DNA of 64,000 nucleotides, from positions 1,952,001 through 2,016,000 of the forward strand of contig OZ251518.1 of NCBI GenBank assembly GCA_965242965.1, in the 5' to 3' direction. Source of the DNA: Candidatus Poribacteria bacterium (GTDB lineage: Bacteria > Poribacteria > WGA-4E > WGA-3G). The notes under the pieces were generated by a model. It was not told the origin of the DNA and searched no databases. It saw only the letters and a program-made list of their open reading frames with translations. This document shows, piece after piece, positions 39,023-54,518 of this stretch. Numbering within the stretch: position 1 is the first letter of the stretch; the number at the start of each line of letters is the position of its first letter. The position numbers and the translations under genes are program-made.

Positions 39023-39055
39023 GGGAAAATCAAAATCGGGACGGCGCGCCCACAA

Positions 39056-40570: not shown

Positions 40571-40589
40571 CGGTTCATCCTTGTTCTCA

Positions 40590-40950
40590 TCGTAGGGCGG
40601 GGGCCTGTCCCTCATCGAGCGATCGCGGGGGACAGGCCCCCGCGCTACGGTTTGCAAGGCAGCCTCCCTTTCCCCGTAGGGCGAGGGCCTGTCCCTCGCC
40701 ATGCGTGAAGGGGAGACCTCCTCACCTCTGTAGGTCAGGAGTGCCTGCTCCTGAACCGTTCGGGAGCGGGCGCTCCCGAACTACAGAGGTGGGCCCGATG
40801 CGCCCCTGCCCTCCCTTTTCTATCGGCCGTGCCTCGCGCAACCCAACGATCGCGGGGGACAGGCCCCCGCGCTACGGTATCGGGACGGTTTCTCGGCAGC
40901 AGAACTGCCCCCCCCTCACCGTAGGGCGAGGGCCTGTCCCTCGCCATGCC
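40590..40950. repeat. REP cluster
   Basis: Multiple doublets. Confidence 0.85.
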
Positions 40951-40970
40951 ACGGATTAACAAACGCAACT

Positions 40971-42029
40971 CTATTCCCCCACAAAAATACGATAAATATC
41001 CTCAAACAAACGAACATCTGTCAACGTATCTTCGGCAGAAGAACGGAACGGTGCCGGACTTCGGACATTCGCAATGAAGTATTCCGCCTCCCGACGATAT
41101 GCCCATGTCCACGCAGGACGCGGAATAGGACGCGAAATCTCCTGCTCCTCACCAGCAAGATAAATCTCCACTTCGGCAGGCGTATTCTTCAGCAACAACG
41201 GTGGTGCCCACGTGTGAATCCAGCCGTTTTCAAAATAAATCTGGCTATGCTCATCCCACCGATAATGCGAAACATGTCCTGTCTCCAGAGTTACCCGAAC
41301 GCCGCCCATATTAAAAATGACAACACCGGAATACCCGTTTGCATCCAGATCTACGGCGGTAACGCTGACATCATCGCCTGCATCGAGAAACCAGCGCATG
41401 AGATTAATGTTGTGCGTATATTGCTGGAGGTATCCCAGATAGGAACCGCGATATTGCTCCGGCAGCCATTCCGGTGTGATGACAGGCGCGCTCGGCTTCG
41501 GTTCATCCGTGCCGTCCATCTGCGAGTCTAAATTGCAAACCCAGTCGCCGCCAAACCCGTGATTTCGGGCGTATGTCAACCTGCCGAGTTCACCTGATTC
41601 GCGGAATTCCATCACCTTCGCTTTGACAATCTCGTTGCCGGCATCGTAACGCTTCATGTAACCTACCATCAACTTTTTGCCGGAGGTGCGCGATGCCTCG
41701 ACGATGGCTTCCGCTTGCGCGATGGAGACAGCCATCGGTTTCTCCATGAAAACGTGCTTGCCCGCGAGAAGCAGGTCCTTCGCGATTTCGCCTTGGAGCG
41801 CGAAGTCCGCCGAGACAGCGACCGCCTCAATCTCCGCGTCCTGCGCGAGTGCCCCGTGGTCTTCGTAAAGTTGGGGGATGCCGAACCGCTTTTGCACTGT
41901 CGCGCCGAGTTCGGAACGCACTTCGGCGAGTGCGATTAACTCGCAGTCGGCGATGCTAGCAAAGTTCGGGATATGCACCTTCTGTGCCATGAATCCACAC
42001 CCAATATAACCGAGTCGGATTTTTTCCAT
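40971..42029 (-). CDS. Gfo/Idh/MocA family oxidoreductase
   Basis: IGCGFMA, EKPMA, VGYMKRYD. Confidence 0.9.
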   Translation of the reverse strand: MEKIRLGYIGCGFMAQKVHIPNFASIADCELIALAEVRSELGATVQKRFGIPQLYEDHGALAQDAEIEAVAVSADFALQGEIAKDLLLAGKHVFMEKPMAVSIAQAEAIVEASRTSGKKLMVGYMKRYDAGNEIVKAKVMEFRESGELGRLTYARNHGFGGDWVCNLDSQMDGTDEPKPSAPVITPEWLPEQYRGSYLGYLQQYTHNINLMRWFLDAGDDVSVTAVDLDANGYSGVVIFNMGGVRVTLETGHVSHYRWDEHSQIYFENGWIHTWAPPLLLKNTPAEVEIYLAGEEQEISRPIPRPAWTWAYRREAEYFIANVRSPAPFRSSAEDTLTDVRLFEDIYRIFVGE

Positions 42030-42045
42030 GCGATTTTCCTCAAAA

Positions 42046-42522
42046 TTACTTGTGCCGCGATTCAATTCGCGCGACAGCGTCCTTCGCGCCTTCGCGCACC
42101 AAGGTGGATACGTCGTATTGCGAGAGGTATCTCAGTTTGTCAAATCCTTCGGAACCATTCACTTCAATTTTGCCGAGGGCGACGGCGACGAAATAACGGA
42201 CATCCGCGTCCTCATCGTCTAGCGCGTCCAGCAGTGCCTCGATATCCATTTGCGTGGCCAGGTCGCGTTCGTCATCGCCGATGTTAATCAAGGCTTGCGC
42301 GGCGATGCGCCGTGAATGAATGTCGCCGTAGCGTAGCGATGCGAGTAGCCCACTCGTCGCCGTCGTGGGGAGCACCGTGAGATTATCCCAATCGCAATCG
42401 TGGCAGAACCATGAATCTTCGGCGAGATTCTGGACGTTCACACTGCCGCAAGAGGGGCATTCCTCAAATACCGTTTCACCGATAGGCGGGATGCGTAACC
42501 CCGCTTTTTGTTTCTGACTCAT
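42046..42522 (-). CDS. Zn-ribbon + HEAT-repeat protein
   Basis: CPSC..CHDC then DEDADVRYFVAVALGKI. Confidence 0.75.
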   Translation of the reverse strand: MSQKQKAGLRIPPIGETVFEECPSCGSVNVQNLAEDSWFCHDCDWDNLTVLPTTATSGLLASLRYGDIHSRRIAAQALINIGDDERDLATQMDIEALLDALDDEDADVRYFVAVALGKIEVNGSEGFDKLRYLSQYDVSTLVREGAKDAVARIESRHK

Positions 42523-42893
42523 GAGGGTTCGTCTTCCTCCAATTCCGGTAAGTCTCGCCAGATTTCAGGGCCTTCCGGCTTGAAATTAATGGTGGCGATG
42601 AACTGCATGCCGTGATAGAAGTTGATTTTGAACTTCCCGCCGCCGAAATGCTGCTTGAGGTAGTCCAAGGGGGTTTCAATCAGCGGTCCCATTTCGTCCG
42701 CGTGGTAAAAAGCGAGGGGTTTAAAGCGCACCGTATTGCCGACCGGTTCCTGAACGAGGAGGCGCGCCGATGTCGCAGGGAACAGCACTTTAAACGCGCC
42801 CCACAGGTCATCGACTGTCGGGTTTGGCTTGCCTAATCGCTTTTTGAAGTCGTTCTCCAAGTATTCCGAGAACGTGTTAAATACCCATTCCAT
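42519..42893 (-). CDS. Hypothetical protein in the radical SAM operon
   Basis: AAGGAG RBS; ATGA overlap with the next gene. Confidence 0.7.
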   Translation of the reverse strand: MEWVFNTFSEYLENDFKKRLGKPNPTVDDLWGAFKVLFPATSARLLVQEPVGNTVRFKPLAFYHADEMGPLIETPLDYLKQHFGGGKFKINFYHGMQFIATINFKPEGPEIWRDLPELEEDEPS

Positions 42894-42985
42894 GATGGAA
42901 CTCCTTTGTCGCGCTAGAGCGGTGCCTTCAAGAAGTCCTTCCAGTCAAAATGAGGCAGAGGGAACTCCTCCGTGGCTTTGCATTG

Positions 42986-43543
42986 TCAGAACGTGGCGGC
43001 TTTCTCGAAGAATTCGATATCGACACGTTCGATCTGCGCGGCGCGGGCATTCTCGGCGACACGCTGGACAACCATCTCGCGCACGAACGGAATCGGGATG
43101 CGCTTCACGCGATGCACAACTTCCTCCGTGCAAGGCACGTTCGTGTTGTCAAGAAAAGGACCATCGTGCATCGGCATTTCATCCGGATGTTCGCACGTTT
43201 CCGGCACCAATTGTTGCAAACGCATGGAGACGTAGTCGGTTACCCACTGCTTTAATGCCGCCGCGCTATCTGCAGCAGAAGCGTCCGTCTCATTTGCGAG
43301 CATCGAGACCGGGAGGTCTCTCCTACCCGCCGCGCTGTTTGCAGGAGGCGCGTTTCCCTGGGCTTGACTCCCTGTGCCGTTGTCGGTGGAAGAGCCCTCG
43401 CTGTTGTGATTGTCCTGCGCGTCGCTTGATAAACGCGCGTTCCAATCTAATTTCTGATTGATGCTGACGAGGAGGCTCTCCACGTTGGTGAGGCGTTCCT
43501 CAACGTCTGTCAGCCGTTCTTGTAAGTGAATGTTTTCGCTCAT
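42986..43543 (-). CDS. Coiled-coil protein with C-terminal PCP_red-like domain
   Basis: GGAGG RBS; RVKRIPIPFVREMV..VAENA..VDIEFFEKA. Confidence 0.65.
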   Translation of the reverse strand: MSENIHLQERLTDVEERLTNVESLLVSINQKLDWNARLSSDAQDNHNSEGSSTDNGTGSQAQGNAPPANSAAGRRDLPVSMLANETDASAADSAAALKQWVTDYVSMRLQQLVPETCEHPDEMPMHDGPFLDNTNVPCTEEVVHRVKRIPIPFVREMVVQRVAENARAAQIERVDIEFFEKAATF

Positions 43544-43594
43544 ATTTCCTCCGTGTGCCTCAAATGAGGCTTTTTATTTCCAAAACCGCACCTT

Positions 43595-43885
43595 TCCGTA
43601 GGGCGAGGGCCTGTCCCTCGCCATGCAACGATCGCGGGGGACAGGCCCCCGCACTACGTTACAAACAGGCCCGCCTTTCCAAAACAGGCCCACCTTTCCG
43701 TAGGGCGAGGGCCTGTCCCTCGCCGTGCTTGCGGGGGACAGGCCCCCGCCCTACGTTCAAAAATCGAGACCAGGAGGTCTCTCCTGCCTCGCTATGCAAC
43801 GATCGCGGGGGACAGGCCCCCGCACTACGGGCCAAATAGGGCAAGATACGTTCCAAAATCGAGACCGGGAGGTCTCTCCTACCGC
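43595..43885. repeat. REP cluster inside the radical SAM operon
   Basis: Multiple doublets. Confidence 0.85.
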
Positions 43886-43895
43886 ACCATGCTAC

Positions 43896-45200
43896 TTAAC
43901 GCCGCGGCGCGAATGACGGCATGCCTGTCTTATCAAACCGCTTTTTAACCGCCTTCATGAGTTCCGGCGTAATTTCCCGATGTCCATGTTCGCGGGCATA
44001 TTTTTCGACGCTTTTGATAACCATCCCTCTTGCGAAGGAAGGCACGCGCTTTAACCGCTTCTGTGCCGCCGCATTCCATTGCAAATCGTAAGCCGGCTCA
44101 CTCGCGAACGCCGTAGCGTTTGCAAATTGGACAGGCGGCCGTTGCTGCCCCGGTTGATATTCGCACGATGCATCGGCGGCGAGGTAATTACCGGTGTCGG
44201 CGTAGGCACGCGCTCGGCATCCGCCGCAAACTTCTCGGAATTCACACGCGCCGCATTTCCCCTCAAGCAGGGTGCGGTCCCGCAATTCCTGAAACGTCTC
44301 CGCTTCATTCCAAAGTTTAACGAAACTTTCCGATTTCAGGTTACCGACGCTTACCGGCAGATAGGGACACGGTGTCAACTCTCCTTCCGGCGAGATTCGG
44401 CAGTAATAGATACCACACGGGCATGTGCCGCTCGGATAGCCTTGCAGGAAGGCGGAGTCCGACTGCTGTTCATAAATGACGCGTTTATAGTGCGGCGCGC
44501 ACTTCGCGGCGATGAGCATCTTCCCACTGTAGTCCGCCTGCAGTTGGAACATTGTCTCCAGCATTTTCTCATATTGCGCTGCAGACAAATCCATCACTGT
44601 CTTCCCTCTTCCCGTCCGCACGAGAAAGTAGAGGTTCAGCACCTTCGCGCCGAGTTGATAAGCGAACTCGACAATCCGCGGGATTTCATCGTAATTCCAC
44701 TGCGTCACCGAGGTTTGGACGAGGAAGTCAAGTTTTGCGCGTTTGAGTGCTTCAACCCCGTTCATCGTCGCCTTCCACGCGCCTTCCATCCCGCGAAACC
44801 TATCGTGGTTAGTGGGTTGAATAGAATCAATGCTGAGCCCTGCGCCGGTAACGCCGTGCCGTTGCATCTGTTCAACGACTTCGTCGTTCAGTAGCACACC
44901 GTTCGTGCCCATCACGACGAGGAACCCGGTATCGGCGGCGTATTTAGAAATCTCCAAAATATCGGGACGCAACAGCGGTTCGCCGCCGGTGAGGATGAGC
45001 AGGATGTTCGGGTTAATCTCGGCTATCTCGTCAATAATGCGGAAACATTGCGCTTGGCTGAGCTCCGCCTCGCGGTGATAGCCTTGCGGGAACTCGTCCG
45101 TATCCACGAACCCCGCGGGTAGGTAGCAGTGCATGCATTTCAGGTTACATAACCGCGTGATATTCCACGAAACCGCCTGAACTTTGGTTTGATTTTCCAT
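43896..45200 (-). CDS. Radical SAM/SPASM enzyme (NirJ/AhbC-D-like) with C-terminal PCP_red-like domain
   Basis: CNLKCMHC, TGGEPL, SPASM CPCG..CPY..CGAC..CGGCRARA; tail WNAAAQKRLKRVPSFARGM. Confidence 0.88.
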   Translation of the reverse strand: MENQTKVQAVSWNITRLCNLKCMHCYLPAGFVDTDEFPQGYHREAELSQAQCFRIIDEIAEINPNILLILTGGEPLLRPDILEISKYAADTGFLVVMGTNGVLLNDEVVEQMQRHGVTGAGLSIDSIQPTNHDRFRGMEGAWKATMNGVEALKRAKLDFLVQTSVTQWNYDEIPRIVEFAYQLGAKVLNLYFLVRTGRGKTVMDLSAAQYEKMLETMFQLQADYSGKMLIAAKCAPHYKRVIYEQQSDSAFLQGYPSGTCPCGIYYCRISPEGELTPCPYLPVSVGNLKSESFVKLWNEAETFQELRDRTLLEGKCGACEFREVCGGCRARAYADTGNYLAADASCEYQPGQQRPPVQFANATAFASEPAYDLQWNAAAQKRLKRVPSFARGMVIKSVEKYAREHGHREITPELMKAVKKRFDKTGMPSFAPRR

Positions 45201-45201
45201 T

Positions 45202-45654
45202 TTATCCTTTAAATCGTAAAGCGATGCCGAAAACAATTAAGCCTGCGATGAGCGTCAAACCGCCGAAGAGATTGACAGTTGCGCTCGGAGCGCGCTGTCC
45301 GTTTTCTTCTTCAAGGTGCCGCCGGTATAGTGCACTGTGAAGTCCCCAAAATAGTGCCATGCCTCCGAACGCCGCGAGTTTCACAACAAAGTTTAGCATA
45401 TAATCCACTTTGAATGCCATATCATTATTCCATGCGACGATAAAGAACACCATCGCGCCTGTTGTGAGGAGGACATGAATCATGAGACGTATCCAGCGTC
45501 GGAGGCGATTATGGATTGCCAGTAGCGCGTCGTTCGGCAAGTGTCGCCGCACAATCGGCATAGCGATGAAGGTAGAGAAAACTACGCCGCCGAACCAGAC
45601 TATCGCTGCGATGAGGTGTATGCATCGGATGCAGAGTTCTACGATTGTGCGCAT
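45202..45654 (-). CDS. CopD/DUF4149-like 4-TM membrane protein
   Basis: HLIAAIVWFGG; four hydrophobic helices; abuts the radical SAM start. Confidence 0.7.
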   Translation of the reverse strand: MRTIVELCIRCIHLIAAIVWFGGVVFSTFIAMPIVRRHLPNDALLAIHNRLRRWIRLMIHVLLTTGAMVFFIVAWNNDMAFKVDYMLNFVVKLAAFGGMALFWGLHSALYRRHLEEENGQRAPSATVNLFGGLTLIAGLIVFGIALRFKG

Positions 45655-45726
45655 TTTCGATTTAAGCCTTGTTAAAGAGATTCACGATTTTGTCGGGTTA
45701 ATGATAACCTTTTCGGGGTGCAGAAG

Positions 45727-46608
45727 TCAACCTTGCGTTTTGCCCAGTTCAGCCTTCCCTGTAACGAGTGGGCAAATCCCTTCAAATTCAAGGATAGTCG
45801 CGGGGCGAATCGAAAAGTACTGATGTCTTCGTCCTTTAAACCGCACCTTTAACGCGGGGCCCTTACGAAAGGTTTGGTATCGAGGGTGTGGATATCCGCC
45901 ATTTAAGTTAACCGGTATATCCTCTTCCCGCAGTTCCAAATCAAGTTGGAGGATTTCTTCGACGGTATAGGACAACTTCAGGTAAAGCACGGCTACCAAG
46001 CGGGCAAACTTCTGGAATAGGACTGGCGTTTCGCGAAACGCTTGATAGAGTTGAGGGAACGGTGATTCATGAATTGCTAGGCCATTCTCGTGTTCAAGTG
46101 AGATGCCGTTCCGCACCCGGTATTCAAATAGCCATGGGCTGGCGGCCCCGAGTTTCTCGTCCAGAAGAATCCGCCGTGCTCGGAGTTCGGCGAGCTGGTC
46201 ACCGGTTAATTCCCCGAATCTCTTCTCATGATGCAAGCCCTGCGCCTTGCTCCTTTTCAGACTAACCTCCCAACCAGAAGAGGTTTCGGAAACTGCTTGA
46301 GGCGCAACCCACGCGGCGTAGTTGCGGTGCGCAAAAGCGAAATCTCCATCAGTGCCTGTTTTTAAGGAATGCAGAAATCCGCACTCTTCGGGTGATTCCG
46401 GCAGAAGTTTGAGAGAAATTTCGGATGAGGTCGCGTGTGCTTCTTGCACCCGAACAAAATACTGGCTCCGTTTTGTTGGACGGAGGAGCACAAATTCGCA
46501 AGGTTCGCTCTCCAGCGGCACAGTAGCCGTGAGGGCACCGCCACTCGGTTGCGGAATGGCCCCTTGATACCTTTCCATAAAAGTGAGTTCATAAATGTGT
46601 TGCGGCAT
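45727..46608 (-). CDS. Hypothetical protein (putative defence cassette member)
   Basis: 293-aa ORF with GGAGG RBS, co-oriented with the TIGR02391-like gene. Confidence 0.6.
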   Translation of the reverse strand: MPQHIYELTFMERYQGAIPQPSGGALTATVPLESEPCEFVLLRPTKRSQYFVRVQEAHATSSEISLKLLPESPEECGFLHSLKTGTDGDFAFAHRNYAAWVAPQAVSETSSGWEVSLKRSKAQGLHHEKRFGELTGDQLAELRARRILLDEKLGAASPWLFEYRVRNGISLEHENGLAIHESPFPQLYQAFRETPVLFQKFARLVAVLYLKLSYTVEEILQLDLELREEDIPVNLNGGYPHPRYQTFRKGPALKVRFKGRRHQYFSIRPATILEFEGICPLVTGKAELGKTQG

Positions 46609-46640
46609 TTTTAGCCTCCAAGATTACGCGAGCGTCTCCG

Positions 46641-47369
46641 CTAGGGTGTAGTTGACAGCGGTGCGCGAGAGTCAATAATCCGAAGCAAGTGACTTGCGAA
46701 GATGATGAGTTCTGCAGCTTCATCGGCTGCAACGGAGACATTCCGATGGCTATGCGGGTTTTTGTAAAGGCCGATTGCGCCGGCGAACAGTTGGTGCGTG
46801 GCATCCTTTTCCGCCTGTGGTTGGTTCGCGTCTGTCAGCGGTCCGTCCTGAGCGTGGAAGGCTTGTCGCATCAAGTGAACGCCGTAATCTGTATCAGAAT
46901 AACCACCTGCATCCCGAACGGCGACTTCCACCTCTTTGAACGCTAGGAGGACAGCCGTGCCGTAATTACCCCGTGAGAAGGCATACCATACCTCTGTGGC
47001 CAACGCTGGATGCAGTAGGGATTTTGGTAATAGATTTGCGAGACGATAGGCATCCAGGTCTCTAGCATTTTCTATGCGGAGTCCCCGTCTCGTAATGAAA
47101 ATCCACTCTCCTTGACTACCAGGGCTAGGGGCGATTAAACCTTCTTTTTCAAGCCACATCCACCCTTCCATGAGATCACGACTAATGCTCTTCTGATGCT
47201 CCTGGGGATAGTCTGCTACCGTATGCGGCATACTGAAGTTATAGCGATTGAGTTCGGGACTTCCCCCTGGGAGGGATTTCAGATATTCCAAAATGACTCC
47301 TGCTAATTCCTCCGGTTCAAGGTTTAGCAAGAGTTCGTGGTCTGGAATAAGTTCGTAGATAGATGGCAT
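46641..47369 (-). CDS. TIGR02391 (Ymh-like) family protein
   Basis: LLHP..AVLLAFKEVEVAVR..GVHLMRQAF..LFAGAIGLYKNPHSH. Confidence 0.8.
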   Translation of the reverse strand: MPSIYELIPDHELLLNLEPEELAGVILEYLKSLPGGSPELNRYNFSMPHTVADYPQEHQKSISRDLMEGWMWLEKEGLIAPSPGSQGEWIFITRRGLRIENARDLDAYRLANLLPKSLLHPALATEVWYAFSRGNYGTAVLLAFKEVEVAVRDAGGYSDTDYGVHLMRQAFHAQDGPLTDANQPQAEKDATHQLFAGAIGLYKNPHSHRNVSVAADEAAELIIFASHLLRIIDSRAPLSTTP

Positions 47370-47422
47370 CGTTTACCTCAAAGCGAGTTTCATCGCGCGG
47401 GGTGGGCGCATCAACCGATTTC

Positions 47423-49123
47423 TCACTGCGGTGCCAGCATCGCCTTGATGTCTGCCGGCAGCTGAGCATCGATTATCCGCTCAAAGTCTGCAACGCTCTT
47501 GTAGAGGGTGTGAAACAACTCAGAGACATCCAATCCTCTTCTTTCGGCGGCAACCAAGTCCGCTTTGGCTTTGTTCCAATTTTGCAGGCACAGCCAAACG
47601 AGAGCCCTGTTGAAATAAACCAGGGTATCGTGCGGATTTATCCCTAGTGCCGTAGTATAGTCTTCAAGAGCCAGGTCGAATTCCCCCGTGCAGAAGTAAG
47701 CGGCACCGCGATTGCAATAAGCCTTGTTGGTGTTATCGGAACTCAGTTCAATCGCTTTCGTATAATCGGCTATCGCCCGATCGAACGCGCGGTTTTTGCC
47801 GTAAGCAACGCCCCTGTCGTAATAGGCATCCGCGAAATCGGCATTGAGTTTTATCGCCTTGCTCAAGTCTGCGATGGCTTTGTCAGCGTCGCCTGTTTTA
47901 CCATAAAGGTTGCCGCGATTGTAGTAGGCCTTAGCATAATCTGGCTTGAGTTCTATTGCCGTGTTAAAGTCTGCGATCGCCTTTTCTGATTCGCCGGTTT
48001 TGTGATAAACGCTCCCGCGGCTGTTATAGGCTTCGGCGAAACGAGAATCGAGTTCTATCGCCATGTTAAGGTCTTTGAGAGCCCTATCAAAGCTGCCTTC
48101 ATTGCCATAGACATCGCCGCGATTGTGATAGGCATCGGCGTAATCGGGTTTAAGCGTAAGCGCGGTGTTAAAATCACCGATAGCGTTGTTAATTTCGCTC
48201 TTGCGCCTATAAACGTTGCCGCGATTATTATAGGCGATAAAATCATCGGGGTTGAGTTCTATCGCGGTGTTGAAATCGTTGAGAGCCTTGTCAAACTCAC
48301 CTATGTTGCAGTAAGCGATGCCGCGATTGTTATATCCCTCGGCACAACTGGGATTGAGGGCAAGTGCTGTGTTAAAGTTTTCAATAGCCCTATCAACGTT
48401 GCCTTTTCCGCTATAGGCATCACCGCGATTGACATAGGGAATTTCAAAATCAGGTGCCAGTTTTACCGCGATGTTGAAATCCGCGATAGCAAGGTCAAAC
48501 TTACCTTTGTAGAGGTAAGCAACCCCGCGGTTATTATACGCATCGGCATGTTCTGGGTTCAGATCAATTGCATGCGAATAGGCTTCTATCGCCATTTCTA
48601 TTTCCCTAAGCATCCCGAGAAGAAAGTTCCCGTGCTGGAACACCCACTCAAGTAGCGTTTCCTTTTCCGCTGCGTTAGAGGCACGAGCCCGCGTTTCGTT
48701 AACGGCCTTTCGGAGCCCATCCACCACGTTCTGCCAACCTTTGCTCTCAGGATGCCATTCGTTAATCGGCACGCCTTTGTCAGGAAGAGCCTCAAAATTC
48801 TGGAGTTGATGATTGAGCCAATCACAACTCTCAAGGATGATGGGAATGACTCTCATTTCCAACCCTAGTGCTTCGGCTAATTCCTTATTGCAGTTCTTAG
48901 ATGCAAGGCTATCAGCAGAGACAAGGTAGATGAGCAAGTCTGAATCGGCAAGGTGTTTGAGAATGTTTTCCTGACTCGCTTTGTCCCCCGCGGTGAGATC
49001 ACCATCGTGCCAAGTTATGAGTTCGTTTTGCTTCCCCATCACAGCAAGCCGCCTTCTCAATTCGTCCTTTGCTTCAGTGTTTCTATGCGAATAGGCAATG
49101 AAGCCTTTCAGTGGTTTGCACAC
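47423..49123 (-). CDS. TIR domain + TPR repeat protein
   Basis: FIAYSH, LVSADSLASKNCNKEL, VIPIIL; ~10 TPRs (AYNNRG); probable GTG start 49123. Confidence 0.88.
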   Translation of the reverse strand: MCKPLKGFIAYSHRNTEAKDELRRRLAVMGKQNELITWHDGDLTAGDKASQENILKHLADSDLLIYLVSADSLASKNCNKELAEALGLEMRVIPIILESCDWLNHQLQNFEALPDKGVPINEWHPESKGWQNVVDGLRKAVNETRARASNAAEKETLLEWVFQHGNFLLGMLREIEMAIEAYSHAIDLNPEHADAYNNRGVAYLYKGKFDLAIADFNIAVKLAPDFEIPYVNRGDAYSGKGNVDRAIENFNTALALNPSCAEGYNNRGIAYCNIGEFDKALNDFNTAIELNPDDFIAYNNRGNVYRRKSEINNAIGDFNTALTLKPDYADAYHNRGDVYGNEGSFDRALKDLNMAIELDSRFAEAYNSRGSVYHKTGESEKAIADFNTAIELKPDYAKAYYNRGNLYGKTGDADKAIADLSKAIKLNADFADAYYDRGVAYGKNRAFDRAIADYTKAIELSSDNTNKAYCNRGAAYFCTGEFDLALEDYTTALGINPHDTLVYFNRALVWLCLQNWNKAKADLVAAERRGLDVSELFHTLYKSVADFERIIDAQLPADIKAMLAPQ

Positions 49124-49286
49124 CCTTTCTTTCCTCCACGATGCAGGTTTTCTGTGTGATGATAACATATCTTGCGAACAAATTTCAATCAAATTCGCAG
49201 AATTTCCAAATAGGCCATCATTTGCGAAAAAAACGCTCAACGACATCCCAAACATGTCTCCTTCTAAGGCTTAAAGAAGCATTTAA

Positions 49287-49654
49287 CTGAGGGTGTTTCA
49301 TAATTCGTTCAACGTCGCGGTGACAGGCCCCTTCTACGGTGAAAAAAACGCCGCCCTTCACGTAGGGCGGTGGGAAAACCTGTCCCTCCCCATGCTTGAT
49401 TGCCCCGTTCACCGTAGGGCGAGGGCCTGTCCCTCGCCATGCCTAAGGTCTGTAAGACCTTAATGTCTATAGCATCCTGCATCGCAGCGCACCCTAAGGT
49501 CTGTAGGACCTTAATGTGCAGCGGCTCACCTCGCTGCGGCTTGATTAAGGGCCTAGCGGACCTTGAAAACAGTGGCAAATCTGTTTTTCCATAGACATGT
49601 AGGTGCTAAAGCACCTAAAGAGGCATCCATAACGGAGTTATGAAATACCCTCAA
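49287..49654. mobile_element. MITE-like shell with REP cargo, flanked by TTAA
   Basis: TTAA-CTGAGGGTGTTTCATAA ... TTATGAAATACCCTCAA-TTAA. Confidence 0.72.
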
Positions 49655-49662
49655 TTAACCCC

Positions 49663-49920
49663 CTATCGGATACGTCTCATGTACTCGTCGTGTTTTCCAA
49701 TCCAAAACCAGACGAGAGTTCCCTTTCGTTCAAAAGCCAACATCCGATAGGCACTGCTGATTCGTGCAACCTACAGTGTCTTGACTTTTTTCAGATGCAG
49801 AGATGGGTGCCGTGGATTTTCAGACAGGAATTCGACTTTCCTGATAGCACGTTTTTGAACGTTTCGTGGAAGTCTGTCATAACATTCCCAAAAATCGTCG
49901 TGCAGGCTATGTTTCTTCAT
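49663..49920 (-). pseudogene. ParE/RelE-like toxin with an internal TAG (not in ORF track)
   Basis: Hand translation MKKHSLHDDFWECYDRLPRNVQKRAIRKVEFLSENPRHPSLHLKKVKTL*VARISSAYRMLAFERKGTLVWFWIGKHDEYMRRIR; TAG at 49771-49773; ATGA overlap with the upstream gene. Confidence 0.82.
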
Positions 49921-50366
49921 AACACTTCGTGCGTATAAGCGCGAAAATCAGAAAGCCTTGGGGCTCTTCCGGCGTTTGCGATTTTAAATCCTGTCAAGGC
50001 AGGCTTGGAAAATTGACCCACAGACTCCAAGACATCTGATGATGAATACTGAGCGAGAAACGAAGCCACATCCTCGCATTTGCCCGCATCAAAATCGGCA
50101 ATGACGCGCTCGGCGATAGCATCAAATTTCCCGGCATCCACGTCTACCTCAAGTTGTTTATCCCAAGCATCCGCATGCGCTGCCAATGCCTCCAAAAGCC
50201 TGACTTCCAGCGTTTGCACTAAGGCTTCTTTCGTTTTTTCGCGGCACTTCACCTCAGGGAATTCTTGGATCAGCCCACTCCACTCGCTACCATTCTCCCA
50301 AATATTGGCAGTATAGAGCTCGCCATCCTCCAGAGTTTGGATTTCGTGAGTATAAACGCGTGTCAT
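49917..50366 (-). CDS. Putative antitoxin: HicB-like N-domain + WD.Q.E.D..AGK.D helix
   Basis: AAGGAG RBS; WSGLIQEFPEVKCREKTKEAL; AWDKQLEVDVDAGKFD; coupled to the toxin pseudogene. Confidence 0.65.
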   Translation of the reverse strand: MTRVYTHEIQTLEDGELYTANIWENGSEWSGLIQEFPEVKCREKTKEALVQTLEVRLLEALAAHADAWDKQLEVDVDAGKFDAIAERVIADFDAGKCEDVASFLAQYSSSDVLESVGQFSKPALTGFKIANAGRAPRLSDFRAYTHEVL

Positions 50367-50376
50367 GCGTGACTCC

Positions 50377-50913
50377 TTAAAACTGCGAGGGGAAACTCCC
50401 ACGCGCAGCATCCATCACTTCCGCAGTTATCTCGGCATAGCCGTTGTCTTTCGCGAACGTTTCAATACCCATCTTTGCCATCGGACGGACAAAACTCGGA
50501 ATCCGCTCCAAGCGAGATAATGCCTCCGCTGACCAGGTAGGACCGGCGGGTTCCGCCTTCGTCGGCTCTTCTTCCTCAAACGCGCCTGCGATGACAGACG
50601 TAAACGGACACTTGCCACCCTCAGCGGTGCCCGACGCGTTTGCATCTTGGGCAGCAGGCGTGGCGGGCATCGGCTCGCGTTTGGCGGTTCCGAGCTGCGA
50701 ACGCACCATCTGCATCGGTTGCGCCGCCTCGGCACTGCCGCCTAACTGCAAGTCCAAGGATTTCAGCATTTGGGTTTCCCACGGGTTGAGGAACATAGCG
50801 AATTCCATGAAGCAATCCGGACATTCAAACACGGCGGTGACGGAACCTTGCTCAGGACGCATCACGTCTTTGAATTTCATCGCTGTATCGCATTCTCGGC
50901 ATAAGAATTTCAT
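50377..50913 (-). CDS. Zn-ribbon + PCP_red-like domain protein
   Basis: CREC..CPDC; tail WSAEALSRLERIPSFVRPMAKMGIETFAKDNGYAEITAEVM. Confidence 0.78.
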   Translation of the reverse strand: MKFLCRECDTAMKFKDVMRPEQGSVTAVFECPDCFMEFAMFLNPWETQMLKSLDLQLGGSAEAAQPMQMVRSQLGTAKREPMPATPAAQDANASGTAEGGKCPFTSVIAGAFEEEEPTKAEPAGPTWSAEALSRLERIPSFVRPMAKMGIETFAKDNGYAEITAEVMDAARGSFPSQF

Positions 50914-51788
50914 CGTTGAATCTCCTTAAAGAAATGTTGAATTTGCGCAGCAACTGCTGTGAGTGCTACGCTTGCGGGAGTGTTCGGGTATTCACGCAAA
51001 TAAGGCACCCCCTTGTCACCACAATAGGCAAGTCTCGGGTCGAAGGGAATACTACCGAGTGTCCCTTCAATGCCCGACTCCTCCGTGGAAAAGAGGGGTT
51101 CCTTTTCGCCACAATGCTGGCAGATATGAAACGCCATGTTCTCGACAACGCCGATAACCGGAACGTTCAGAATCTGTCGCGCCATCGCCAACGATTTTTT
51201 GACGATGAATTGCGACACCTCGGACGGAATCGTCACGACGATAACGCCGCCGAGGTTTGGGATCAGTTCAACAACGTTTGGAATCCTGTCTGTGCCTGGC
51301 GGCAGATCGAGCAGGAGATAGTCTAATTCTCCCCAGTCGGTATCACCGATGAACTCTCGGAGCGCGCCGACTTCCATCGTGGCACGCCAAGTGTAGGCAT
51401 CTTTCTGGGTGGGCGCATTCCACAGAACGGGTGCCTCATCCTCGGCGAGGAGTAAGTCCATCGAGATAACCTTGATGCCGAGGGCGTTGACTGCCGGCGT
51501 GACACCCGCAGGCGAATATTCAAGCGCGGCATTTCGCACCCCCATCATTTTCGCGATTGACGGCCCGTTGATGTCAGCGTCAACGACACCGACAGTTTCG
51601 CCTTGTAGCGCAAGTGCAACAGCAAGGTTCGAGGTAATCGCACTCTTGCCGACACCGCCTTTCCCGCTCAGAATCGCGACGGTGTGTTTGACATCGGCAA
51701 GCCGTTTTTGCAGCCGATTGAACTGGCCGGCAACTTGTCCAATAATGTTGGAACCTGCATCATCCGGGAGTTCTTTGTAGGTTTTCAT
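50910..51788 (-). CDS. Mrp/ApbC/NBP35 family P-loop ATPase
   Basis: SGKGGVGKS, DADINGPS, WGELDYLLLDLPPGT, ENM..CQHC. Confidence 0.9.
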   Translation of the reverse strand: MKTYKELPDDAGSNIIGQVAGQFNRLQKRLADVKHTVAILSGKGGVGKSAITSNLAVALALQGETVGVVDADINGPSIAKMMGVRNAALEYSPAGVTPAVNALGIKVISMDLLLAEDEAPVLWNAPTQKDAYTWRATMEVGALREFIGDTDWGELDYLLLDLPPGTDRIPNVVELIPNLGGVIVVTIPSEVSQFIVKKSLAMARQILNVPVIGVVENMAFHICQHCGEKEPLFSTEESGIEGTLGSIPFDPRLAYCGDKGVPYLREYPNTPASVALTAVAAQIQHFFKEIQR

Positions 51789-51795
51789 AACCATA

Positions 51796-51824
51796 ATTAT
51801 AGCAAATTTTACTGCAAATGTCAA
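51796..51824 (-). promoter_or_regulatory. sigma70 promoter of the mrp/PCP_red operon, identical to the ffh promoter
   Basis: TTGACATTTGCAGTAAAATTTGCTATAAT on the minus strand. Confidence 0.75.
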
Positions 51825-51886
51825 TTTTTTTTCAACTGTTTTCTGAATTGGACAGGCGGCGCGCCAGATATGAAAAATTTCTCCAC

Positions 51887-51916
51887 TTGACAAAAATCCG
51901 CTAGCACTGCTAAAAT
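51887..51916 (+). promoter_or_regulatory. sigma70-like promoter, probably leaderless transcript
   Basis: TTGACA-N18-TAAAAT, ATG 6 nt downstream. Confidence 0.55.
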
Positions 51917-51922
51917 AGGGTT

Positions 51923-52969
51923 ATGAAAATCGTAACGCTAAAACTCATTTTTATCCTCGTCTTATCCTGCTGTCATTTTGGGTGCCAAGGCGGCGCGTTA
52001 AACCTCGATTCTGTCGGCGGCAGTTTAGAGATTGTCGAAAAATCTGGCGAACTTACCGAAAACGAAGTGTGGGATGGACGCATCTATGTTACCGGCACCG
52101 TTATCGTCCCGGAAGGCATCACGCTAACCATCCGTTCCGGTGCCATCGTCGGGTTTGAGCCGATGGAGACACCGAGTCAAATCCTCGTGCGGGGGGAACT
52201 TTACGCCGAAGGCTCGCCAGATTTGATGATAGTCTTCGGTTCACTCGGCGCGCAACCGACGGAGCAAGGGGAAACCAAAACGCCAGCGACTTCGCCTTTT
52301 GCCAGCGGATACGGCTTACCGCGAACGCAGACAATTACACAATCAACAACCATGACAACCGCCGCACCGCCAAAAGCAGGAGATTGGCGAGGCATTCGCA
52401 TTGAGTCACAAAGCCCGAATAGCAGGCTCACCTATTGCCGCATTCAACACGCAACGGCGGGTATCACGATTAGCACCGATGCCGTGCAGATTGAGCGATG
52501 CCTTTTCAGCATGAACAATATCGGCGTGCTTTGCGAAAATGCGAATCCGACTATCACGAATAACGAGTTCAACCGCAACGGCACGGGACTCCAATTCCGT
52601 GGTGCTGCCGCGCCGGAGGTGGAGCATAACGCCTTCGCCGCGAACGAATACGGCATTATCTGTGAGGACGATTCGCGGCCGCGCATCGTTTACAACGAAA
52701 TCCGCGCGAATTATCAGCACGCCATCGTCTGTTATTCCACCGCCTCACCGGAGATTGTCTCTAACAACATCACGATGAACGTCGGATGGGCAGTTTACGA
52801 TGGCGGCAGACTCCGCGATAATTACATCAGTGGGAATAAACAGGCGGGACCCGGCATTACGGAACTCTCAATCAGCACACAAAGCGAACAGATTTACAGC
52901 GTTGATGAGACGTTAGACCCGAGGACTACGCCTGTCCCCGAAGCGGGAGTGCAACGGGATAATTTTTAG
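51923..52969 (+). CDS. Exported right-handed beta-helix (NosD/pectin-lyase-like) protein, possible lipoprotein
   Basis: Signal with Cys; VIVPEGITLTI, GDWRGI, repeated PTITNNEF/PEIVSNNI. Confidence 0.78.
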   Translation: MKIVTLKLIFILVLSCCHFGCQGGALNLDSVGGSLEIVEKSGELTENEVWDGRIYVTGTVIVPEGITLTIRSGAIVGFEPMETPSQILVRGELYAEGSPDLMIVFGSLGAQPTEQGETKTPATSPFASGYGLPRTQTITQSTTMTTAAPPKAGDWRGIRIESQSPNSRLTYCRIQHATAGITISTDAVQIERCLFSMNNIGVLCENANPTITNNEFNRNGTGLQFRGAAAPEVEHNAFAANEYGIICEDDSRPRIVYNEIRANYQHAIVCYSTASPEIVSNNITMNVGWAVYDGGRLRDNYISGNKQAGPGITELSISTQSEQIYSVDETLDPRTTPVPEAGVQRDNF

Positions 52970-53002
52970 CGCGCCGTTGAAAATCGCGTCTACCGATTTA
53001 AG

Positions 53003-53580
53003 GTGAGGGTGTTTCATATTTCGATGCGTTCGGTAGGAGAGCCCTCTAGTCTCGATGTTCCCGTAGGGCGGGGGACAGGCCCCCGCCCTACGAGGAAAGG
53101 AAGGCGTTATTTTTATCGTAGCGCGGGGGCCTGTCCCCCGCGATCGTTGGAGTGCGCGTGCACGCACGATGGCGGGGGCCTGTCCCTCGCCCTACGAGGA
53201 AAGGAAGGCGTTATTTATCGTAGCGCGGGGGCCTGTCCCCCGCGAGTTCCATCGTTCCGATGTGTGTTTCCCCCGCTGTAGTTTGTGATCACCTGATCAC
53301 AAACAGTTCAGGATCAGGCGATCCTGACTTACAGGGGTGATGCGGTCTGGCAGCAAAACGATGGCGAGGGACAGGCCCTCGCCCTACGGTGAAGTGCCGT
53401 TTTTATCGTAGCGCGGGGGCCTGTCCCCCGCGAGTTCCATCGTCACGATGTGTTTCCCCCGCTGTAGTTTGTGCTCGCCTGATCACAAACAGGTCAGGAT
53501 CAGGCGATTCTTACCTACAGAGGTGGGCTTGCATTGAGACCGGGAGGTCTCTCCTTCGGGGATTTATGAAATACCCTCAG
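53003..53580. mobile_element. MITE-like shell with REP cargo
   Basis: TGAGGGTGTTTCATA ... TATGAAATACCCTCAG; TTAAG on both flanks. Confidence 0.7.
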
Positions 53581-53594
53581 TTAAGGTGTCTATT

Positions 53595-54518
53595 ATGAGC
53601 CGCCTGAAGGCATATCTTGAACTCATCCGTTATCCGCTCTTCGCGATTCCGATAGTCGCAACGCTCCCCGGCGCGCTCATCGCAAGCGAGGGGAAACTGA
53701 CATGGCGCGTCGCGGCGGCACTGTTCATCGCGCTGTGTGGCTACTTCGCCGGGATGATAAAGAATGACTACTTCCACCACGAGACAGATAGCCTGACAAA
53801 CCCGGAACGCCCGCTGCCGTCGCGTCGCCTAACGCCGCGGCAAGCACTCGTCCCGGCGAGTGTTATCTACGGGTTATGCGTCATCGCCGGCTTCTGGCTC
53901 AACGTCAAAGCAGGACTGCTGGTAATCAGTTTAGTTGCCATTTCGCATCTCTACAATGCGATTTTCAAGGCGCGCGGTATATTGGGCAGCCTGACACTGC
54001 CGATAGGCATCGGGTTGCTGAACGTTTTCGGCGCGCTAGTCGTCAGCGGCGAGGTGCCGCGGCTCGTATGGTATGCCTTCGCCGCGACGACGCTTTACGA
54101 TTTCGGCACGCACATCACTACCACGTTCAAAGATCTTGCGCGTGACGAAGCACTCGGCATCACGACGACACCCCTCCAGATAGGCATCCGCCCGGCGTTA
54201 TGGCTCTCCGCGCTCGCGACGATGCTCGCGTTCGCTGTCGCGCTCTTGCCGTATTGGCTTGAGCCGTTGAATCAGAAATCTTATGCTGTTTGGGTAGTTT
54301 TAGGTATCGTCGCCACGGTTGCCACGCGCATCCCGCTCTATCTGCAACCGAGTGAAAAGAACGGGTATTTCGCGCTGAAGGGTTCAATGGTGGGTTCAAT
54401 TCTCTTTTTTCCCTGCCTCATCGGCGCGCAGGTGTCTATTGTTGTTGCAGCGGCGGTTATCGTGCCGTTGCTATTGATTACGACGTTTTTGTTGAAGACG
54501 ACACGTCAGGAAGTTTGA
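53595..54518 (+). CDS. UbiA family prenyltransferase
   Basis: NDYFHHETD..NPERPLPS, FKDLARD, many TM segments. Confidence 0.88.
   Translation: MSRLKAYLELIRYPLFAIPIVATLPGALIASEGKLTWRVAAALFIALCGYFAGMIKNDYFHHETDSLTNPERPLPSRRLTPRQALVPASVIYGLCVIAGFWLNVKAGLLVISLVAISHLYNAIFKARGILGSLTLPIGIGLLNVFGALVVSGEVPRLVWYAFAATTLYDFGTHITTTFKDLARDEALGITTTPLQIGIRPALWLSALATMLAFAVALLPYWLEPLNQKSYAVWVVLGIVATVATRIPLYLQPSEKNGYFALKGSMVGSILFFPCLIGAQVSIVVAAAVIVPLLLITTFLLKTTRQEV

Follow-up and report, generated by a model that had tools for sequence, protein, structure and literature searches.

Why does a sponge-symbiont Poribacteria genome that lacks photosynthesis genes encode a cluster of proteins ending in PCP_red, a small domain from chlorophyll synthesis, beside a Mrp-type ATPase and a tetrapyrrole-type radical SAM enzyme? 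We analysed a window of 64,000 nucleotides (contig OZ251518.1, positions 1,952,001 to 2,016,000, assembly GCA_965242965.1), and all coordinates below refer to this window. The cluster belongs to a conserved set of proteins that occurs with respiratory oxidase genes, and we tentatively predict that this set makes or delivers the haem of these oxidases. We found no published description of it.

Genes of the cluster

The observation made in the first-pass annotation, that three proteins encoded beside Mrp on the minus strand share a PCP_red-like C-terminal domain, is confirmed, and the gene order and coordinates are as described there. The features are the following.

50910..51794, minus strand: dedicated Mrp/NBP35-type P-loop ATPase paralog
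50377..50913, minus strand: Zn-ribbon–PCP_red protein, 178 aa
45727..50411, minus strand: variable insert, not part of the module
45202..45654, minus strand: CopD-like small membrane protein, 150 aa
43896..45197, minus strand: AhbD/NirJ2-like radical SAM/SPASM enzyme with a C-terminal PCP_red domain, 433 aa
43555..43895, no strand: cluster of REP-like palindromic repeats
42986..43543, minus strand: coiled-coil protein with a divergent PCP_red tail
42519..42893, minus strand: unknown protein, 124 aa
42046..42522, minus strand: Zn-ribbon–HEAT-repeat protein, 158 aa
40971..42065, minus strand: Gfo/Idh/MocA-family oxidoreductase, a conserved downstream neighbour

The Mrp open reading frame runs to 51893 from a TTG (50910-51893; PF10609, 233.3 bits), but orthologs of 290-295 aa point to the ATG at 51794 or 51788. 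The Walker A motif is SGKGGVGKS and the CxxC motif (CQHC) is kept. The protein does not reach the NCBIfam equivalogs (MrpORP, 231 of 450 bits; ApbC, 166 of 348 bits). Its gene overlaps the Zn-ribbon–PCP_red gene by 4 bp. The Zn-ribbon–PCP_red protein has an N-terminal four-Cys knuckle (C5, C8, C31, C34) that is invariant, a variable linker and a PCP_red tail at residues 127-171 (61.6 bits, Pfam cut-off 32.5); 33 sequences were aligned, and a relative is named in a source as a “PCP reductase family protein”.

The radical SAM open reading frame runs from 43896 to 45236, with the 433 aa protein starting at MENQT (45197). It contains Radical_SAM (83.1 bits), SPASM (33.0 bits) and, after a linker of about 25 aa, PCP_red (58.5 bits) domains. 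The CX3CX2C motif and eight further Cys are invariant in 18 distant homologs. The coupled CopD-like gene encodes an HxxxxxxWxGG motif in the first helix; it scores just under the cut-off for PF05425 (29.3 bits, cut-off 32.1) and 20 bits for DUF4149. It is directly upstream of the radical SAM gene in 80 of 80 Poribacteria loci, and relatives occur in 3 of 80 metagenome loci.

The third PCP_red tail, in the coiled-coil protein (residues about 136-185), falls below the Pfam cut-off (21.2 bits, E 3.1e-4), but a profile comparison and its predicted fold support it. An hhalign comparison of 19 orthologs against 33 Zn-ribbon–PCP_red proteins gave a probability of 80% (E 1.4e-5) over 58 columns, tail to tail. 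In the AlphaFold2 model the tail is three helices at pLDDT 80-85, and the two best Foldseek matches in the whole PDB are the two solved stand-alone PCP_red domains, 2l09 (TM 0.65, rmsd 1.7 Å, 49 columns) and 2kru (TM 0.67, rmsd 1.1 Å, 47 columns), although the E-values are only 0.07 and 0.1. The last 90 residues or so are almost invariant in Poribacteria, and the window's copy carries an extra low-complexity stretch of 48 aa. The gene is present in 78 of 80 loci. The three C-terminal tail motifs are present in the translations, and we conclude that the three tails are homologous.

The 124-aa protein is the most conserved of the cluster (85-95% identity within Poribacteria) and carries a GGGKFKxN motif. 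It has no Pfam or NCBIfam hit, is encoded in 76 of 80 loci, and an exhaustive search found 61 representative relatives. The AlphaFold2 model has a pLDDT of 94.3, with no clear relative found in the PDB. The Zn-ribbon–HEAT protein (HEAT_2 31.9 bits, cut-off 27.7) has a CxxC…CxxC pattern and is present in 75 of 80 loci. The Gfo/Idh/MocA gene (PF01408, 78.5 bits) is present in 73 of 80 loci but was not seen next to the module in the metagenome loci, so its membership is uncertain.

The first-pass annotation treated the genes as an operon with an inserted cassette. The insert is real and variable: the distance from the Zn-ribbon–PCP_red gene to the CopD-like gene is 90 to 9,002 bp in 32 Poribacteria loci, and 4,722 bp here. 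It holds an unknown 164-aa gene (49917-50411), a TIR–TPR gene (47423-49255; Pfam TIR_2 plus TPR, with the TIR domain matching ThsB-like TIR at 77.8 bits in PADLOC), a Hypoth_Ymh gene (46641-47369; PF09509) and an unknown 293-aa gene (45727-46608). Of the 80 Poribacteria loci, Ymh is in 5, the 293-aa gene in 1, the 164-aa gene in 1 and the TIR–TPR gene (at 50% identity or more) in 0. The cluster is not one unbroken operon, however. It is split by the insert, and the gap between the radical SAM and coiled-coil genes is filled with REP-like palindromes of families D1, D2, D3 and D7 (copies at 43586, 43630, 43688, 43727, 43752, 43801 and 43847).

The absence of photosynthesis genes, noted for this stretch, holds genome-wide. 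In this genome, which is 94.7% complete, PCP_red occurs in only four proteins, and no nitrogenase-like PF00148 protein was found.

Co-occurrence of PCP_red proteins, the Mrp paralog and oxidases

The fourth PCP_red protein, Usp–Usp–PCP_red×3 with a rubredoxin-like knuckle, is encoded 2.3 Mb away at the end of the cox/bd-like cluster and was outside the sequence seen in the first-pass annotation. In other Poribacteria and in other phyla the whole module lies in one operon with a cytochrome bd-like oxidase, c-type cytochromes and an aa3-type haem-copper oxidase with CtaA, CtaB and SCO1. For example, one locus (L143) reads Mrp, Zn-ribbon–PCP_red, Usp–PCP_red, radical SAM, CydA-like, cytochrome c ×3, CoxB, CoxA, CoxC, CtaB, and one genome (G020) carries the whole set on one strand.

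We examined 80 metagenome loci fetched with distant homologs of the radical SAM–PCP_red enzyme. These are the best 80 of 534 relatives, not a random sample, and carry no taxonomy. Mrp is present in 32, Zn-ribbon–PCP_red in 28, a protein of about 650 aa with several PCP_red domains in 37, and at least one of these in 54. In the 18 loci with at least 3 kb on both sides the counts are 10, 9, 12 and 13, so 5 of the 18 have the radical SAM–PCP_red gene with no partner nearby. Mrp and Zn-ribbon–PCP_red genes overlap by 4 bp in 12 of the 28 loci that hold the latter. Zn-ribbon–PCP_red is missing from the lineage in which Mrp follows the radical SAM gene, and some loci (L105, L116) have PCP_red proteins but no Mrp within 10 kb. 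CydA-like is in 27 of the 80 loci and Cox genes are in 15. The radical SAM–PCP_red fusion occurs in proteins that sources name as Binatia, Scalindua/Loosdrechtia, Limnocylindrales and Latescibacteria.

Within Poribacteria, 109 of 109 genomes of three families carry PCP_red, mostly 5-6 domains each, and 0 of 11 genomes of five other families do. The module Mrp (60-86% identity) is in 12 of 12 PCP_red-positive genomes and 0 of 11 PCP_red-less genomes, which keep only the canonical Mrp. The CydA-like gene has the same distribution (12 of 12 and 0 of 11). These contrasts rest on few independent events, because the genomes are kin. In the tree, module-linked Mrp proteins separate from canonical ones by a branch with 100/100 support. 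The Mrp/Zn-ribbon–PCP_red pair lies beside the radical SAM gene in 30 of 68 loci, and beside the Usp–PCP_red gene at the cox operon end in 5 of 5 genomes tested from the other clade; the first arrangement occurs in one Poribacteria clade and the second in another.

A predicted complex of the Mrp dimer, Zn-ribbon–PCP_red and ATP received weak support (ipSAE 0.59; runs 0.62, 0.59 and 0.57; best control 0.00). The runs agree in at least 62% of contacts, and the partner's pLDDT is at least 62. The pass mark was reached by 58 of 80 solved complexes and 2 of 110 mismatched pairs; at 0.60 or under, only 7 of those 80 solved complexes passed, and so did both mismatches. The prediction used our own alignments plus ATP, which the calibration did not cover, and gave no interface, so it does not show that the PCP_red tail is the part that touches Mrp.

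Predicted role and alternatives

The cluster is one half of a conserved four-protein module: the dedicated Mrp/MinD-type ATPase paralog, the Zn-ribbon–PCP_red protein translationally coupled to it, the radical SAM/SPASM enzyme with PCP_red on a flexible linker, and Usp–Usp–PCP_red×3. The CopD-like, coiled-coil–PCP_red, 124-aa and Zn-ribbon–HEAT proteins are Poribacteria-side additions. Our preferred reading, which remains tentative, is that the module supplies or matures the haem of the oxidases. The radical SAM enzyme would carry out AhbD-type, O2-independent oxidative decarboxylation of coproheme, the product of the hemE-hemH-hemY pathway in this genome, or a closely related haem side-chain reaction. 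The PCP_red domains would be a shared adaptor that gathers the enzyme and accessory proteins on the ATPase dimer, and ATP binding and hydrolysis would time the hand-over. This resembles the way that Mrp/MinD-type HypB works with the Zn protein HypA, and NifH/BchL-type ATPases work with their partners; a Mrp/MinD-type HypB solved together with HypA is among the PDB relatives of this Mrp. The analysis establishes the domain homology, the synteny, the joint presence and absence, the likeness to AhbD and the oxidase context, but the substrate, the docking role of PCP_red (which may instead bind a tetrapyrrole or another PCP_red domain) and the role of ATP are inferred from sequence and predicted structure.

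The best family matches of the enzyme are AhbD (TIGR04545, 319.5 bits) and NirJ2 (307.4 bits), as is the case for 18 of 18 distant homologs, and it is the only AhbD-like gene in the genome. No member reaches the NCBI cut-off for either family (about 320-350 bits against 500), so the substrate may differ. The genome encodes hemE, hemH and hemY. A candidate ChdC is divergent (46 bits against cut-offs of 235-253), but its presence means that an AhbD function is not required. A 2026 review states that AhbD occurs in bacteria with the coproporphyrin-dependent pathway as the O2-independent coproheme decarboxylase.

The interpretation in the first-pass annotation, that PCP_red is a docking tag recruiting clients to an Fe-S-carrying Mrp in an undescribed metallocofactor maturation pathway, is supported only in part. 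The tails are homologous, the genes co-occur well beyond this genome, and the predicted binding to Mrp is weakly supported, as for the haem model; the oxidase link narrows the metallocofactor to haem or oxidase maturation. In the Fe-S version of this model, Mrp would load [4Fe-4S] clusters into the radical SAM/SPASM enzyme, which needs three, and into the other clients. The window's Mrp and all Poribacteria orthologs shown in our comparison keep CxxC, and the enzyme has the radical SAM triad plus eight invariant Cys. However, CxxC, which is needed to carry the cluster, is deleted in 13 of 26 module-linked relatives and degenerate in 2 more, including the lineages whose operon is otherwise complete, so carrying Fe-S cannot be the conserved role of the family. 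The Usp–PCP_red×3 and coiled-coil clients show no Fe-S motif, and the genome keeps a canonical Mrp 5 kb away for general Fe-S delivery. We consider this version doubtful. The annotation also stated that the domain at the end of BchB/ChlB contacts the partner ATPase; the literature passages found say only that a BchB C-terminal helix covers the substrate cavity and that BchL contacts BchB, with no residues named.

Less likely, the ATPase and the Zn-ribbon protein may be a metal chaperone pair that acts like HypB with HypA and inserts Cu, or another metal, into the CuA, CuB or bd-like site, with the radical SAM enzyme doing a separate job. The HypB-type PDB relative is consistent with this, SCO1 lies directly before the Usp–PCP_red gene, a CopD-like protein is coupled to the radical SAM gene, and a NosD-like beta-helix protein lies next to Mrp. 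However, the Zn-ribbon protein has no HypA family hit, its N-terminus (MKFLC) does not appear to be the HypA metal-binding start, and the CopD-like protein is rare outside Poribacteria. This model also does not explain why a tetrapyrrole-type radical SAM enzyme carries the same tail.

Also unlikely is that the enzyme is a protein or peptide maturase that modifies an oxidase subunit, a cytochrome or a small neighbouring protein, with PCP_red proteins recruiting the substrate. SPASM enzymes are mostly peptide maturases, PqqE and SkfB are the closest solved structures, and two small, very conserved proteins (the 124-aa and coiled-coil–PCP_red proteins) lie beside the gene. Peptide-maturase families score far lower (about 125 bits or less) than AhbD and NirJ2, and the 124-aa protein is absent from all 80 metagenome loci and is predicted to be a folded domain rather than a leader-core peptide.

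We give little weight to an ATP-driven electron donor, in which the Mrp dimer would work like BchL/NifH and pass low-potential electrons from a bridging cluster to the radical SAM enzyme, docked through PCP_red as BchB is said to dock BchL. Mrp and BchL belong to the same P-loop class, BchB and these proteins carry PCP_red, and the auxiliary cluster of AhbD is involved in electron transfer (PMC6013774), but loss of CxxC in 13 of 26 relatives removes the only candidate redox centre.

Least likely is that there is no common function, that PCP_red is a promiscuous small helical domain and that the neighbourhood is coincidental or purely regulatory, with Usp domains (general nucleotide-binding stress modules) as stress sensors: PCP_red has only 45 residues and Foldseek lists lid subdomains of AAA+ ATPases after the PCP_red entries, which suggests a common small helical bundle, but the joint presence and absence of six PCP_red domains, the Mrp paralog and the CydA-like gene, the gene overlaps and the synteny across phyla argue against it.

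The gene cluster and its shared domain

The predicted genes of the cluster are all on the minus strand of the window, which occupies positions 1952001-2016000 of contig C1 in genome G000, the window's own genome:
50910-51893 (-), Mrp-type ATPase (probable start at 51794 or 51788)
50377-50913 (-), Zn-ribbon–PCP_red protein, overlapping the Mrp gene by 4 bp
45727-50411 (-), four unrelated genes
45202-45654 (-), CopD-like membrane protein
43896-45236 (-), radical SAM/SPASM–PCP_red enzyme (probable start at 45197)
42986-43543 (-), coiled-coil protein
42519-42893 (-), unknown 124-aa protein
42046-42522 (-), Zn-ribbon–HEAT protein
40971-42065 (-), Gfo/Idh/MocA oxidoreductase

The first-pass annotation described this radical SAM/Mrp cluster, with three proteins sharing a PCP_red-like C-terminal domain, and what it described is confirmed. 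PCP_red (PF08369) passes the Pfam gathering cut-off of 32.5 bits in the Zn-ribbon protein (61.6 bits) and in the tail of the radical SAM enzyme (58.5 bits). The coiled-coil protein scores below the cut-off (21.2 bits, E 3.1e-4). A profile-profile comparison (hhalign) aligns its tail to the Zn-ribbon–PCP_red tail at 80% probability, E 1.4e-5, over 58 columns. Its AlphaFold2 model is poor overall (pLDDT 65.5) but gives three helices at pLDDT 80-85 in the tail. The two best Foldseek matches in the whole PDB are the two solved stand-alone PCP_red domains, 2l09 and 2kru (TM 0.65 and 0.67, rmsd 1.7 and 1.1 Å), although with E-values of only 0.07 and 0.1. It is likely a divergent member of the family. 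At residues about 40-88 the window's copy contains a 48-aa low-complexity stretch rich in Ser, Gly, Ala and Asn that is absent from 18 aligned orthologs.

The genome encodes a fourth PCP_red protein that could not be seen from the window alone. This is a 663-aa Usp–Usp–PCP_red×3 protein with a rubredoxin-like knuckle (about C1:4326215-4328207), and it scores 99.5 bits for PCP_red over three stretches. PCP_red occurs only in these four proteins, none of which is BchB, and a search for nitrogenase-like proteins (PF00148, which would include BchN/BchB) gave 0 matches in this genome, which is 94.7% complete.

The 4.7 kb between the Zn-ribbon–PCP_red and CopD-like genes (45727-50411) is a defence-like insert. 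It encodes a TIR–TPR protein (ThsB-like TIR, 77.8 bits in PADLOC), a Hypoth_Ymh/TIGR02391 protein and two unknown proteins. In 32 Poribacteria loci that have both flanking genes, this gap ranges from 90 to 9,002 bp. The genes of the insert are rare or absent elsewhere: Ymh is in 5 of 80 loci, a 293-aa gene in 1, a 164-aa gene in 1, and the TIR–TPR gene in 0. The site is therefore a variable insertion spot and not part of the system.

Distribution in Poribacteria and in other phyla

In 80 Poribacteria loci the CopD-like gene is found in 80, the coiled-coil–PCP_red gene in 78, the 124-aa protein in 76, the Zn-ribbon–HEAT protein in 75, and the Gfo gene in 73, with the misses at contig ends. The Mrp/Zn-ribbon–PCP_red pair is upstream in only 30 of the 68 loci that have at least 9 kb of upstream flank. 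In five genomes of the other clade the pair lies instead after the Usp–PCP_red gene, at the end of the cox operon (5 of 5).

In a genome of another family (G020) the whole set is on one strand. The order is CydA-like, three c-type cytochromes, CoxB, CoxA, CtaA, CtaB, CoxC, SCO1, succinate dehydrogenase-like genes, fumarase, Usp–PCP_red, a second Usp, an IS605-type TnpB/OrfB gene on the other strand, then Mrp, Zn-ribbon–PCP_red, CopD-like, radical SAM and coiled-coil–PCP_red. The TnpB gene (locus L196 of this genome, 9321-10565, minus strand) sits at the junction at which the module is split in other Poribacteria.

In the window's own genome, a large cluster (G000:C1:4303000-4328200) has the same respiratory genes. 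It encodes a split cytochrome b, a 1064-aa multihaem cytochrome c, a cytochrome bd-like CydA (641 aa, of which only the N-terminal half matches PF01654), three cytochromes c (one with an EB_dh domain), an ABC transporter, CoxB, CoxA, CtaA, CtaB, CoxC and SCO1, and it ends with the Usp–Usp–PCP_red×3 gene.

Of 121 genomes of the phylum, 110 have PCP_red. All 109 sampled genomes of three families have it, mostly as 5-6 domains, and none of 11 genomes from five other families does. We compared those 11 genomes with 12 positive ones. The module Mrp (60-86% identity) is in 12 of 12 positive genomes and 0 of 11 negative ones, and all 23 keep a canonical Mrp at 37-45% identity. The CydA-like protein is likewise in 12 of 12 positive and 0 of 11 negative genomes. 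These genomes are kin, so the pattern may reflect only a few evolutionary events. The canonical Mrp of the window (57232-58197, minus strand; PF10609, 349.6 bits) lies 5 kb from the module Mrp, and it is the only Mrp copy kept by the PCP_red-less Poribacteria.

A maximum-likelihood tree of 39 Mrp sequences separates the nine canonical Poribacteria Mrp proteins from all 30 module-linked ones (5 from Poribacteria, 25 from metagenomes) by a branch with 100/100 support. One of nine canonical Mrp loci (L198) gave no ORF with a Walker A motif and was dropped, and one truncated metagenome Mrp (locus L125) was left out. No canonical Mrp from other phyla was included, so the tree is consistent with an old dedicated paralog but does not prove one.

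Proteins with the same radical SAM/SPASM/PCP_red architecture and 45-52% identity carry source names from Binatia, Scalindua, Loosdrechtia, Limnocylindrales and Latescibacteria. An alignment of 18 of these was used to fetch 80 metagenome loci, the best 80 of 534 relatives, which were then searched with profiles built from the Poribacteria orthologs.

Table. Features found in the metagenome loci (number of all 80 loci; number of the 18 loci with ≥3 kb on both sides)
Mrp: 32; 10
Zn-ribbon–PCP_red: 28; 9
Usp–Usp–PCP_red or other multi-PCP_red protein: 37; 12
CydA-like: 27; 8
Cox genes: 15; 9
c-type cytochromes: 20; 8
CopD-like: 3; 2
At least one of Mrp, Zn-ribbon–PCP_red, multi-PCP_red: 54; 13

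Five well-flanked loci have no partner nearby. The 124-aa and Zn-ribbon–HEAT proteins were not found in these 80 loci. A typical operon (metagenome locus L143) reads ECF sigma factor and anti-sigma factor, Mrp, Zn-ribbon–PCP_red, Usp–PCP_red, radical SAM, CydA-like, three cytochromes c (one with an EB_dh domain), a CarboxypepD_reg protein, CoxB, CoxA, CoxC and CtaB.

Relation to known families and predicted role

The radical SAM enzyme is most similar to AhbD (haem b synthase) and NirJ2, which are the best-scoring families along the whole core, over 338 of 339 model positions. The CX3CX2C motif is present (CNLKCMHC), there is a SPASM Pfam hit with a full SPASM cysteine set, and C16, C20 and C23 plus 8 further Cys are invariant in the alignment of distant homologs. 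However, the score for AhbD (TIGR04545) is 319.5 bits against an equivalog cut-off of 500, and 18 of 18 distant homologs, which also match AhbD and NirJ2 best, fall below it too (about 320-350 bits overall). The enzyme also differs from AhbD in its C-terminal PCP_red domain and in its context, an operon with an ATPase, PCP_red proteins and oxidases rather than with ahbABC. It is the only AhbD-like gene in the genome. Three PCP_red-less Poribacteria (genomes G051, G105 and G109) have higher-scoring AhbD-like genes (350-425 bits, no PCP_red tail) beside a paralog, which suggests a conventional AhbC/AhbD pair in those lineages.

The genome contains hemE, hemH and hemY in the arrangement typical of the coproporphyrin-dependent pathway, and so is predicted to make coproheme, the AhbD substrate. 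The only ChdC (coproheme decarboxylase) candidate (G000:C1:4692231-4692536; 1477-2211 in locus L094) is divergent, with a Pfam score of 67.5 bits but 46 bits against HemQ equivalog cut-offs of 235-253, so the aerobic last step of haem synthesis in this organism is itself uncertain. A 2026 review states that AhbD occurs in bacteria with this pathway as the O2-independent coproheme decarboxylase.

The PCP_red domain is homologous in sequence to the C-terminal domain of BchB/ChlB in dark-operative protochlorophyllide reductase (DPOR) and to 2l09 and 2kru, with the same predicted three-helix fold. In the ChlB/BchB chain 2ynm_D, residues about 466-528 align to PCP_red. In both settings the protein bearing the domain appears to work alongside a P-loop ATPase of the MinD/Mrp/NifH class. 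Here, however, the domain is attached to a radical SAM enzyme, to Zn-ribbon proteins and to a Usp protein. The first-pass annotation stated that the BchB tail contacts the partner ATPase, but the texts examined did not say whether its last 45 residues touch BchL, and in them the role of the domain in DPOR is itself not settled.

The ATPase has the PF10609 fold (233.3 bits) and the deviant Walker A (SGKGGVGKS) of the Mrp/NBP35/ApbC Fe-S carriers. It is a separate paralog of the housekeeping Mrp and scores below the curated cut-offs of the ApbC (NF008669, 165.5 bits against 348) and MrpORP (NF041136, 231.1 bits against 450) equivalogs. The C-terminal CxxC motif that bridges the cluster is present in the window's protein (CQHC) and in the four Poribacteria orthologs shown. 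Among 26 module-linked metagenome relatives, however, it is deleted in 13, degenerate in 2 and intact in 11. Carrying or donating a bridging Fe-S cluster therefore cannot be the family's common role, and a role as an ATP-dependent scaffold or hand-over factor fits better. Among the solved relatives of this Mrp is the Mrp/MinD-type HypB that works with the Zn protein HypA, a useful analogy for an ATPase paired with a small Cys4 Zn-ribbon protein, although the partner here has no HypA family match.

We predicted one complex, of two copies of Mrp, one Zn-ribbon–PCP_red and two ATP, using our own alignments of the two families. The scores were 0.62, 0.59 and 0.57 (median 0.59), against 0.00 for the best of three controls, which amounts to weak support. 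The pass mark was reached by 58 of 80 solved complexes and 2 of 110 mismatched pairs; at 0.60 or under, only 7 of those 80 solved complexes passed, and so did both mismatches. The runs agree in at least 62% of contacts and the partner's pLDDT is at least 62. The prediction came without an interface, so it raises the odds of binding a little but does not say which domain binds.

The neighbouring CydA-like protein lacks most of the canonical CydA profile (63-84 bits, N-terminal half only) and lies with c-type cytochromes, which matches the non-quinol OR families of the cytochrome bd-like (OR-type CydA) clusters described by Murali et al. In the bioRxiv text of that study, Mrp and universal stress proteins are not mentioned and none of the seven passages retrieved concerns radical SAM, although its supplements, which this search did not cover, may bear on this. 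Literature searches on PCP_red and PCP reductase family proteins, alone or with radical SAM enzymes, and on bd-like oxidases together with radical SAM, NirJ, AhbD or haem synthase, found no description of the module, again with supplementary operon tables outside their reach.

The first-pass annotation inferred that PCP_red is a docking tag recruiting clients to an Fe-S-carrying Mrp, and this is partly supported. A functional link between this Mrp paralog and the PCP_red proteins is well supported by comparative genomics, but the Fe-S-delivery reading is weakened. The better frame is a four-protein module attached to terminal-oxidase operons. Its most likely job is O2-independent haem b synthesis, or a related haem step, coupled to delivery; this job, including any conversion of Fe-coproporphyrin III to haem b, is inferred and rests on family likeness and genome context.

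How haem reaches and enters respiratory oxidases, and how bd-like (OR-type) oxidases get their cofactors, is poorly understood. The module links a tetrapyrrole-type radical SAM enzyme, a dedicated P-loop ATPase and a domain so far known only from chlorophyll synthesis to oxidase operons in Poribacteria, and relatives carry source names from Binatia, anammox Planctomycetota, Chloroflexota and Latescibacteria. If the model holds, it assigns a function to the orphan PCP_red domain, including the two structural-genomics entries of unknown role, gives a testable candidate for O2-independent haem supply in organisms with the coproporphyrin pathway, and shows that some Mrp-type ATPases have left Fe-S carriage for another ATP-dependent assembly role. 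The module also supplies clear constructs for pull-downs and enzyme assays. A more far-reaching possibility, which we consider unlikely although it is not excluded, is that PCP_red is a general docking module for MinD/Mrp/NifH-class ATPases that BchB of DPOR inherited. In this view it would assemble an ATP-gated machine (ATPase, Zn-ribbon and Usp adaptors, radical SAM enzyme) that makes or remodels haem without O2 and hands it directly to a cytochrome bd-like oxidase and an aa3-type oxidase, a dedicated haem maturation and insertion system for terminal oxidases spread over several phyla.

Neighbouring genes and repeats

We considered whether the CopD-like protein could be a HemJ, but PF03653 has no match anywhere in the genome. 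The protein is also under the CopD (PF05425) cut-off (29.3 bits against 32.1), although a relative in metagenome locus L142 does pass it, at 38.8 bits. The UbiA gene at 53586-54518 was rejected as haem o synthase because it scores only 30 bits against 246.

The 124-aa protein (42519-42893, minus strand) is the most conserved gene of the cluster and belongs to a small family of 61 representative clusters. It has no Pfam or NCBIfam hit. It is predicted with very high confidence (pLDDT 94.3, pTM 0.85) as a helix-helix-strand-strand-helix-helix-strand-strand domain. Foldseek found no match at E ≤ 0.001, and VIA-align found no chain with Z ≥ 5 among 48,161 (best Z 4.9, rmsd 2.4 Å, 56 residues aligned), which does not show that the fold is new. 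Look-alikes in the Atlas are hypothetical proteins at a score of 0.85, which is a lead only.

Dense REP-like palindromic repeats with the core CGTAGGGCGAGGGCCTGTCCCTCGCC occur at 38500-54000 (for example at 38579, 40909, 43586, 43688, 49402 and 53051-53440), with 13 copies of one family in 15.5 kb. They fill several intergenic gaps, including the one after the radical SAM gene, and create spurious ORFs rich in Pro, Arg and Gly. Transcribed divergently from the module Mrp is a gene (51923-52969, plus strand) that encodes a secreted right-handed beta-helix protein of the NosD type (periplasmic copper-binding family, 53.5 bits).
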